Source of the DNA: an uncultured Chloroflexia bacterium | GTDB taxonomy: Bacteria; Chloroflexota; Anaerolineae; Anaerolineales; Anaerolineaceae | Direction of reading: 5' to 3' | NCBI GenBank assembly: GCA_963704755.1 | Contig: OY969938.1 | Location: 2,670,001 to 2,702,000 of the forward strand | Length of the DNA: 32,000 nucleotides | Part shown: in pieces, positions 23,353 through 23,646 of the stretch | Layout: each line of letters opens with the position of its first letter | Numbering within the stretch: the first letter of the stretch is position 1 | Made by a program: the position numbers and the translations under genes | The notes under the pieces: generated by a model | Database searches by the model: none | What the model was told of the DNA's origin: nothing | The model's input: only the letters and a program-made list of their open reading frames with translations

Positions 23353-23381
23353 TTGACATTTGTTTTCTTTTTATGTACTAT
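23353..23381 (+). promoter_or_regulatory. Strong candidate promoter of the ilv-leu operon (TTGACA-17 nt-TACTAT)
   Basis: -35 TTGACA at 23353-23358, -10 TACTAT at 23376-23381, AT-rich upstream region. Confidence 0.6.
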
Positions 23382-23452
23382 GTAACGAACATTTTATTGG
23401 TTCTGTGTTTCGCTTTTTGAAAGGCTTTCCCCCATTCGGAAAAAAACCACAA

Positions 23453-23563
23453 ATGATTAACTTCCTCCTCTCTCTTGCTATTCTGGCCATTGTACTTCTT
23501 GCGGTACTAATTATTAGTCGCCGTGAACCTGCCTGGGCACGAGTTGATAGGGAGAGAAAATAA
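23453..23563 (+). CDS. Candidate ilv-leu leader peptide (36 codons, Ile/Leu/Val-rich)
   Basis: MINFLLSLAILAIVLLAVLIISRREPAWARVDRERK: 14 of residues 2-21 are I/L/V. First ATG after the predicted transcription start, and followed 35 nt later by an intrinsic terminator just before ilvD. No strong Shine-Dalgarno sequence. Confidence 0.5.
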   Translation: MINFLLSLAILAIVLLAVLIISRREPAWARVDRERK

Positions 23564-23597
23564 CCTAAACTCAAAAAAGTCTGAAGAAACCTTACAA

Positions 23598-23629
23598 AGA
23601 CCGCCCAGGAAATGGGCGGTCTTTTTTTT
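23598..23629 (+). terminator. Intrinsic terminator (attenuator) in the ilvD leader
   Basis: AGACCGCCC-aggaaat-GGGCGGTCT followed by a run of T (8 T in total), 18 nt upstream of the ilvD start. Confidence 0.8.
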
Positions 23630-23646
23630 ACCCAAAGGAGAAGACG

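Follow-up and report, generated by a model that had tools for sequence, protein, structure and literature searches.

A probable ribosome-mediated attenuator with an Ile/Leu/Val-rich leader peptide in front of the Anaerolineae ilvD-ilvBNC-leuA-leuC operon

Introduction

Attenuation of transcription by leader peptides is a textbook mode of control for the branched-chain amino acid operons of enterobacteria. The ilvGMEDA leader (ilvL) of Escherichia coli and Salmonella carries a short open reading frame (ORF) rich in codons for the end products of the operon, which provides multivalent sensing of isoleucine, leucine and valine. The classical trp, leu and ilvBN attenuators operate through alternative RNA helices, designated 1:2, 2:3 and 3:4, with an intrinsic terminator immediately upstream of the first structural gene, and in the leu leader the regulatory run contains minor codons. 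Each of these features recurs in a leader located upstream of the ilvD-ilvBNC-leuA-leuC operon of an uncultured Chloroflexia bacterium of the family Anaerolineaceae (assembly GCA_963704755.1, contig OY969938.1, positions 2,670,001 to 2,702,000; this stretch of 32,000 nucleotides (nt) is referred to as the window and coordinates are given within it). This leader is very probably a ribosome-mediated (leader-peptide) transcription attenuator responding to charged Ile-, Leu- and Val-tRNA. It differs from the enterobacterial leaders in having no sequence or covariance-model similarity to them, in lacking a Shine-Dalgarno sequence and in belonging to the Chloroflexota.

Outside the enterobacteria, leader-peptide attenuation of branched-chain operons has been described or predicted in Actinobacteria (PMC1262725, PMC10272879, PMC11857589) and in Staphylococcus and Listeria (PMC5794164, PMC5864092). 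The Corynebacterium ilvBNC leader (ilvB-II motif) and the actinobacterial ilvB and leuA leaders resemble the one described here in combining an upstream ORF (uORF) enriched in codons for branched-chain amino acids (BCAA) with terminator and antiterminator stems (PMC10272879, PMC11857589, PMC1262725). The likeness extends to initiation, as the leader peptide of Corynebacterium glutamicum ilvBNC is, according to Morbach et al. (2000) as cited in PMC10272879, formed without a ribosome binding site. The Corynebacterium system has ilvB as its first gene, however, whereas ilvD comes first in the window; its RNA sequence and structure are unrelated and its host belongs to another phylum. Among RNA motifs, ilvB-OMG and Leptospira ilvB have since been reinterpreted as uORFs with many BCAA and Thr codons and are probably attenuators too (PMC10272879, section 14); they likewise lie upstream of ilv genes, but the gene concerned is ilvB. 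In Staphylococcus aureus and Listeria an attenuator peptide precedes a long ilv-leu operon that starts with ilvD, as in the window (PMC5794164, PMC5864092). There, unlike in the window, the attenuator works alongside CodY and T-box or Rli60-type elements, and the peptide is Leu-rich rather than mixed in Ile, Leu and Val (I/L/V), with an unrelated sequence.

In the literature searched, no paper on leader-peptide attenuation of this kind was found for Chloroflexi or Anaerolineae, although the broad 2010 survey of Lopatovskaya et al. could list Chloroflexi cases. The mechanism is not new, and its presence in this operon is not surprising to a specialist; the leader family is new for Anaerolineae. 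Through it, the branched-chain amino acid operon gains a regulatory annotation backed by covariation, in a group that is abundant and hard to grow, and whose regulation is almost unstudied.

The leader ORF and its codons

The leader ORF begins at the first ATG downstream of a sigma-70-type promoter (23453; all features are listed in Table 1) and encodes MINFLLSLAILAIVLLAVLIISRREPAWARVDRERK, a peptide with 5 Ile, 7 Leu and 3 Val in total, in which I/L/V account for 14 of residues 2–21. The end products of the operon are the very amino acids specified by these regulatory codons. Measured against the 13 genes of the window, the run is composed of minor codons: all five Ile codons of the leader are ATT, a codon used for 32% of Ile in the window genes (ATC, 63%), both Val codons of the run are GTA (12%), and the Leu codons comprise CTT three times, CTC twice, and CTA and CTG once each, CTG being the choice for 50% of Leu in those genes. 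Thus 13 of the 14 I/L/V codons in codons 2–21 are minor ones, and the GC content of third codon positions (GC3) is 0.35 in the leader vs 0.71 in the window genes.

No other ATG ORF of 12–70 codons, in any of the six frames across the 32 kb, has at least 9 I/L/V among 12 consecutive residues. In the 320 nt or less upstream of ilvD, an I/L/V-rich ORF was found in the sense direction at 17 of 150 loci and in the antisense direction at 3, compared with 0.2 in dinucleotide shuffles.

A leader family in Anaerolineae

Scans of genomes and metagenomes with ilvD gave only relatives of up to 76% identity, and nearer ones were obtained through a protein search together with the contigs of its hits. The nearest ilvD proteins are 77–82% identical and come from Anaerolineae, namely metagenome-assembled genomes labelled Chloroflexi or Anaerolineaceae, Leptolinea tardivitalis, Anaerolinea thermolimosa and Thermanaerothrix. 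In each of the 12 contigs retrieved for these relatives, whose ilvD is 79–82% identical, a promoter, an I/L/V-rich ORF and an intrinsic terminator stand in this order before ilvD, within a gap of 190–1,240 nt directly 5' of the gene that holds no called gene (the gap of locus L167 includes a run of N). The ORFs start with ATG, are 32–38 codons long and contain 12–14 I/L/V codons. The promoter, of the form TTGAC(A/T)-16/17-TAnnnT, occupies the equivalent place in L161–L172, L081, L002 and L003, and the scans of genomes and metagenomes turned up this layout in Anaerolineae-type loci that are more distantly related (L002, L003, L081–L084, L136). Seventeen related ilvD loci share the arrangement of a sigma-70 promoter, an ATG ORF of 29–38 codons with 12–14 I/L/V codons, a terminator and ilvD.

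Across these relatives the start, frame, stop and codon content of the leader are kept while the peptide sequence drifts. The peptides of L161 and L162 (MFNLALSLSILVLILVAVLIISHRNPVWAGVTRYTKRT) are 58% identical to that of the window, and the peptide of L169 is 50% identical. In a DNA alignment of 15 leaders the ATG is invariant, the gaps within the ORF are all multiples of three (3, 6, 9 or 12 nt) and every leader has an in-frame stop. Each of the 15 carries 12–14 I/L/V codons even though the sequences differ, and these residues make up 67% of the run vs 19% of the tail.

A covariance model built from 14 relatives, with the window left out, matches the window full-length at 23483–23629 (69.7 bits, E = 3e-14) and matches L002 and L003 as well; among 98 loci searched, it matched none from other phyla. 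The window element is therefore placed in a leader family specific to Anaerolineae.

I/L/V-rich mini-ORFs also precede ilvD in loci labelled Ignavibacteriaceae, Calditrichia, CSSED10-310, Gemmatimonadetes, Actinomycetota, Proteobacteria and others, and in unlabelled metagenome contigs (among them L008, L010, L021, L051, L068, L069, L087, L098, L127 and L132). Several of these loci have a TTGACA promoter and a terminator. Since the Anaerolineae model misses them, such leaders are either analogous or too diverged to be recognised. The occurrence of unrelated I/L/V leaders before ilvD in several phyla supports the view that this solution has arisen, or has been kept, very widely.

Alternative RNA helices and their covariation

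The leader RNA can form the helices of a classical attenuator. The terminator (3:4) has a perfect 12-base-pair (bp) stem of −21.3 kcal/mol followed by a U8 tract, and its helix is 96% paired across the 15 leaders; like P1 and the 2:3 helix described below, it shows covariation. The 1:2 hairpin, spanning 23468–23556, has a folding energy of −33.5 kcal/mol (z = −3.5), equalled by one of 200 shuffles, and the minimum free energy (MFE) structure pairs region 2 with the early I/L/V codons in all 15 leaders. The P1 apical hairpin, formed within the ORF where the I/L/V run ends, is paired in 94% of the cells of the 15-leader alignment, with five of its seven pairs changed on both sides; in the window and L161 its pairing register is shifted by a one-base bulge. 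A role for P1 as an RNA polymerase pause hairpin is possible.

The competing 2:3 helix is the antiterminator. In the family, its first strand, (T/C)GGGCGG, lies a few codons past the run and pairs with the last bases of the terminator 5' arm and the first bases of the terminator loop; in the window, the partner of region 2 is GCCCAGG at 23603–23609, covering the end of that arm and part of the loop. The MAFFT alignment (A1) had right-justified the terminator loops, leaving the GGG of three sequences one base off register, and the helix was for this reason counted on segments anchored on the invariant GGG/CCC, an anchoring that leans slightly toward structure. Counted in this way, the 2:3 helix is 83% paired across the 15 leaders with 5 of 10 pairs compensatory, none of 500 shuffles reaches its covariation score, and slid registers are paired at 25–51%. 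An independent duplex search located the best partner of the terminator 5' arm just past the I/L/V run in eight of eight leaders, with shuffle fractions of 0–0.06 in six of them.

The window helix, CCTGGGC:GCCCAGG, carries C-G in two places occupied by T-A in most relatives; at its other side two G-C pairs have been lost, leaving 7 bp where the homologous helix of the relatives has 8–10 bp. The alternation of TGG (Trp) and CGG (Arg) in the peptide follows that of A and G at the first base of the terminator loop, which identifies the conserved 'WA' of the peptide as an RNA constraint.

Modelling of the switch

For the switch, the partition function was calculated on a transcript that stops at the end of the terminator loop and lacks the 3' arm; at each codon in turn, the 28 nt under a ribosome were kept unpaired. 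In the window, P(2:3), the probability that the 2:3 helix forms, is ~0 without a ribosome, 0.9–1.0 with the A site on codons 2–17 and 0.4–0.9 on codons 18–22. It falls to 0 on codons 23–33, where the ribosome covers region 2, and then rises again over the final two sense codons (0.9 and 0.8), with a value of 0.4 at the stop codon. Over the 15 leaders, the off-state is ~0 in 11, and the on-state with the ribosome in the run is seen in all.

The 5' untranslated region (UTR) was dropped from this calculation because it gave noisy long-range pairings. When the UTR is included, the MFE structure of the nascent leader pairs 23402–23430 with 23582–23609, before and within the terminator 5' arm, which may be a folding artefact.

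A first-pass annotation of the window, made from its letters, had proposed an Ile/Leu/Val attenuator at this place, and its individual statements can now be compared with the results above. The ORF, its residue counts and its codons are as it described them, and the comparison with codon usage that it suggested, made here on the 13 window genes, finds the run to consist of minor codons. The terminator it indicated has the 12-bp stem and T run and is kept in relatives, and the antiterminator pairing CCTGGGC:GCCCAGG, put forward there as a possibility, has a homologous helix with compensatory changes in the relatives (0 of 500 shuffles). A comparison of upstream regions in relatives, also suggested there, recovered the I/L/V-rich mini-ORF and terminator 5' of ilvD in 12 of the 12 nearest contigs, and the folding check it recommended gives, on the nascent transcript, mutually exclusive terminator and antiterminator structures that switch with the modelled position of the ribosome.

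Proposed mechanism

The logic suggested by the modelled 1:2, 2:3 and 3:4 helices is the classical one. Under a good supply of the three amino acids, the ribosome would traverse the ORF and the RNA behind it would fold into the 1:2 hairpin (23468–23556), sequestering CCUGGGC at 23532–23538. The 3:4 terminator (23596–23624 plus U8) would then form and RNA polymerase would stop 17 nt before ilvD. Under shortage of any one of Ile, Leu and Val, the ribosome would stall in the run and cover region 1, so that region 2 stays free; region 2 would pair with GCCCAGG at 23603–23609 ahead of synthesis of the 3' arm, the terminator would be blocked and the operon transcribed. No translation whatsoever would be expected to lead to termination. 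Read-through on this scheme would depend on amino acid supply, and translation of the ORF would have to be coupled to transcription.

If the leader operates as proposed, its existence would imply that coupling in Anaerolineae is close enough for a ribosome to control a terminator, and would provide indirect evidence for ribosome-polymerase coupling in Chloroflexota.

Counter-evidence and alternative explanations

Several findings weigh against attenuation by a translating ribosome. At equilibrium, the full-length leader always forms the terminator (P ~0.95–1.0), whatever the position of the ribosome, and the switch must therefore be kinetic. Unlike in the enterobacterial leaders, the stop codon is located 23 nt downstream of region 2; as a ribosome at the stop leaves region 2 uncovered, the off-state relies on the 1:2 hairpin re-forming behind the ribosome or after its release. 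The partial formation of the antiterminator with a ribosome at the end of the ORF, seen in the modelled probabilities, likewise makes the off-state dependent on ribosome release and timing. The 7-bp antiterminator of the window is the weakest of the family, and its single-sequence shuffle value (p ~0.04) is marginal. Transcription-translation coupling in Chloroflexota is itself assumed.

Initiation of the leader belongs with these points. A Shine-Dalgarno sequence is absent before the leader ATG in the window and in most relatives, and translation of the leader is for this reason an assumption. The best duplex with the anti-Shine-Dalgarno sequence is −3.5 kcal/mol at the leader ATG of the window vs −8.9 kcal/mol at its ilvD; for the leader ATGs of the window, L161–L172, L081–L083, L002 and L003 the median is ~−3.3 kcal/mol, vs ~−6.6 kcal/mol for ilvD. 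Between the −10 box and the ATG there are from ~10 nt (L171, L136) to ~75 nt (L003, window), and a few members (L171, L082, L136) would be almost leaderless. The C. glutamicum ilvBNC leader peptide mentioned above offers a precedent for formation without a ribosome binding site. It is conceivable, although unlikely, that either the leader ORFs of the family initiate without a Shine-Dalgarno sequence, some of them on near-leaderless transcripts, or the hydrophobic peptide additionally acts in trans, as is reported for peTrpL. Were such initiation true, an attenuator dependent on coupling would work via a non-canonical initiation route in Chloroflexota.

The absence of a Shine-Dalgarno sequence also bears on an improbable alternative, in which the terminator is conditional but answers to a factor other than the translating ribosome, for instance uncharged tRNA, an RNA-binding protein or a small ligand, and the I/L/V-rich ORF is a by-product of the RNA sequence. 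The conserved structure (P1, 2:3 and 3:4) would equally fit a riboswitch-like or protein-bound element. A by-product, however, does not account for an invariant ATG, a frame kept through indels and an in-frame stop in 15 of 15 leaders, nor for 12–14 I/L/V codons in every member despite their sequence differences. Analogous I/L/V-rich ORFs precede ilvD in other phyla where the Anaerolineae model detects nothing, neither a T-box nor any other Rfam family is matched, and the modelled change of structure follows the position of the ribosome. The same conservation disposes of the idea that a frame merely happened to be open in T-rich intergenic DNA beside an ordinary terminator. The AT-rich third positions of the leader (GC3 as given above), and the hydrophobic residues that T at second codon positions produces, are what such a frame would show, but Phe, whose codons are likewise T-rich, makes up only 3% of the run, and the ORF is conserved in 17 related loci. 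Together, the shuffles of the 150 upstream regions (0.2 vs 17 observed) and the conservation in 15 leaders effectively refute it.

A further alternative is a stable small single-pass membrane peptide with a function of its own, its gene ending at the hairpin and ilvD being reached by leaky read-through. Residues 2–21, after which basic residues come, resemble a transmembrane helix; Pfam shows a weak similarity, below threshold, to the hydrophobic tail of an LPXTG anchor; and a loose family consensus, LVLIxVLIIE...PVWA, can be written. Leader peptides with functions in trans exist, peTrpL being an example (PMC7298713). The run, however, consists of 67% I/L/V and only 5% Phe, Met, Trp, Tyr and Cys combined. 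Typical membrane helices use a broader set of hydrophobic residues. The conserved motifs coincide with the P1 and 2:3 helices and vary as base pairing demands rather than according to peptide chemistry: in P1, GCT (Ala) with AGC (Ser) is exchanged for GTT (Val) with AAC (Asn), and in 2:3, TGG (Trp) with loop A is exchanged for CGG (Arg) with loop G. No Pfam family is found above threshold for the leader peptides, the ORF has no Shine-Dalgarno sequence and was called by gene callers in none of the 12 contigs, and it always stands directly before ilvD, with no space for an ilvD promoter. A small membrane protein, which the first-pass annotation had named as one finding that would overturn its proposal, is accordingly disfavoured, since the motifs track the RNA helices, and it must be regarded as very improbable.

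Comparison with known RNA families

At gathering score, neither the window nor the 17 related loci gives any Rfam match, T-box and ilv-associated families included. The Rfam models Leu_leader (RF00512), Phe_leader (RF01859), Thr_leader (RF00506) and Trp_leader (RF00513) score 16–27 bits against gathering thresholds of 41–55, and they match the terminator hairpin only. The T-box model gives no match in 23200–23750 even when E is allowed up to 10, in agreement with the first-pass remark that no T-box signature was seen. Among the matches with E up to 10 for the window leader there is no ilv-associated family.

Operon, promoter and neighbouring sequences

Table 1. Features of the leader and operon in window coordinates
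Feature	Coordinates	Strand	Remarks
Sigma-70-type promoter	23353..23381	+	−35 TTGACA 23353–23358, 17-nt spacer, −10 TACTAT 23376–23381
5' untranslated leader, ~65 nt	23388..23452	+	A-rich before ATG (GGAAAAAAACCACAA), no Shine-Dalgarno sequence
Leader ORF, 36 codons + TAA (23561–23563)	23453..23563	+	encodes MINFLLSLAILAIVLLAVLIISRREPAWARVDRERK
Regulatory codon run, codons 2–21	23456..23515	+	5 Ile (all ATT), 7 Leu, 2 Val (GTA)
Region 1: 5' strand of basal stem, long 1:2 hairpin (anti-antiterminator)	23468..23494	+	Ile/Leu/Val codons 6–14
P1 apical hairpin in ORF at end of I/L/V run	23499..23526	+	GCGGUACUAA-UUA-UUAGU(C)GCCGU
Region 2: 3' strand of 1:2 basal stem	23530..23556	+	holds antiterminator strand CCTGGGC 23532–23538 (codons 27–29, A-W-A)
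Intrinsic terminator (regions 3:4)	23596..23629	+	stem 23596–23607/23613–23624, loop GGAAA, T8 23622–23629
Shine-Dalgarno AAAGGAG 23634–23640 and ilvD, TTG 23647 to 25320	23634..25320	+	first structural gene; TIGR00110, 810 bits
Remaining operon	25617..32000	+	ilvB 25617–27320, ilvN to 27924, ilvC to 29078, leuA 29100–30731, leuC from 31060 (beyond window end)

The leader promoter matches 10 of 12 consensus positions, and transcription would start at ~23388 as judged from its position. The T run ends 17 nt upstream of the ilvD start TTG (23647), which leaves no space for a separate ilvD promoter. NCBIfam matches back the identities of ilvD, ilvB, ilvN, ilvC and leuA. Both the TTGACA-17-TACTAT promoter and the ilvD-ilvBNC-leuAC operon had been read in this form in the first-pass annotation, and both hold.

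A weaker second promoter-like site, TTGATA-16-TAAACT (23544–23571, 9 of 12 matches), falls within the leader ORF, toward its 3' end. This site has probably arisen by chance, and transcripts from it would still meet the terminator.

The spacer between ilvD and ilvB (25321–25616) measures 296 nt in the window; in the 12 related contigs the two genes abut, overlap or lie up to 120 nt apart. It contains a 17-nt tandem repeat (25382–25415) and several inverted repeats, e.g. 25336–25347/25360–25371 and 25408–25417/25571–25580, and could represent either a repeat element that has been inserted or a second site of regulation. The leuA-leuC spacer (30732–31059, 328 nt) has no Rfam match and no I/L/V-rich mini-ORF.

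On the 5' side of the leader promoter is a tandem array of ~8 copies of a 282-nt unit (20953–23226), which are 96–98% identical except for the last copy at 63%. The array lies within a 782-codon open frame (20977–23325) whose translation is odd, being rich in Arg, Cys and Pro, and matches no NCBIfam or Pfam family. It is flanked by a 73-nt direct repeat (20850–20922 and 23169–23241, 99% identical) that holds the hairpin CTCTCCC-AGAAAC-GGGAGAG. The whole region, 20850–23241, probably represents non-coding repeat DNA and not a gene.

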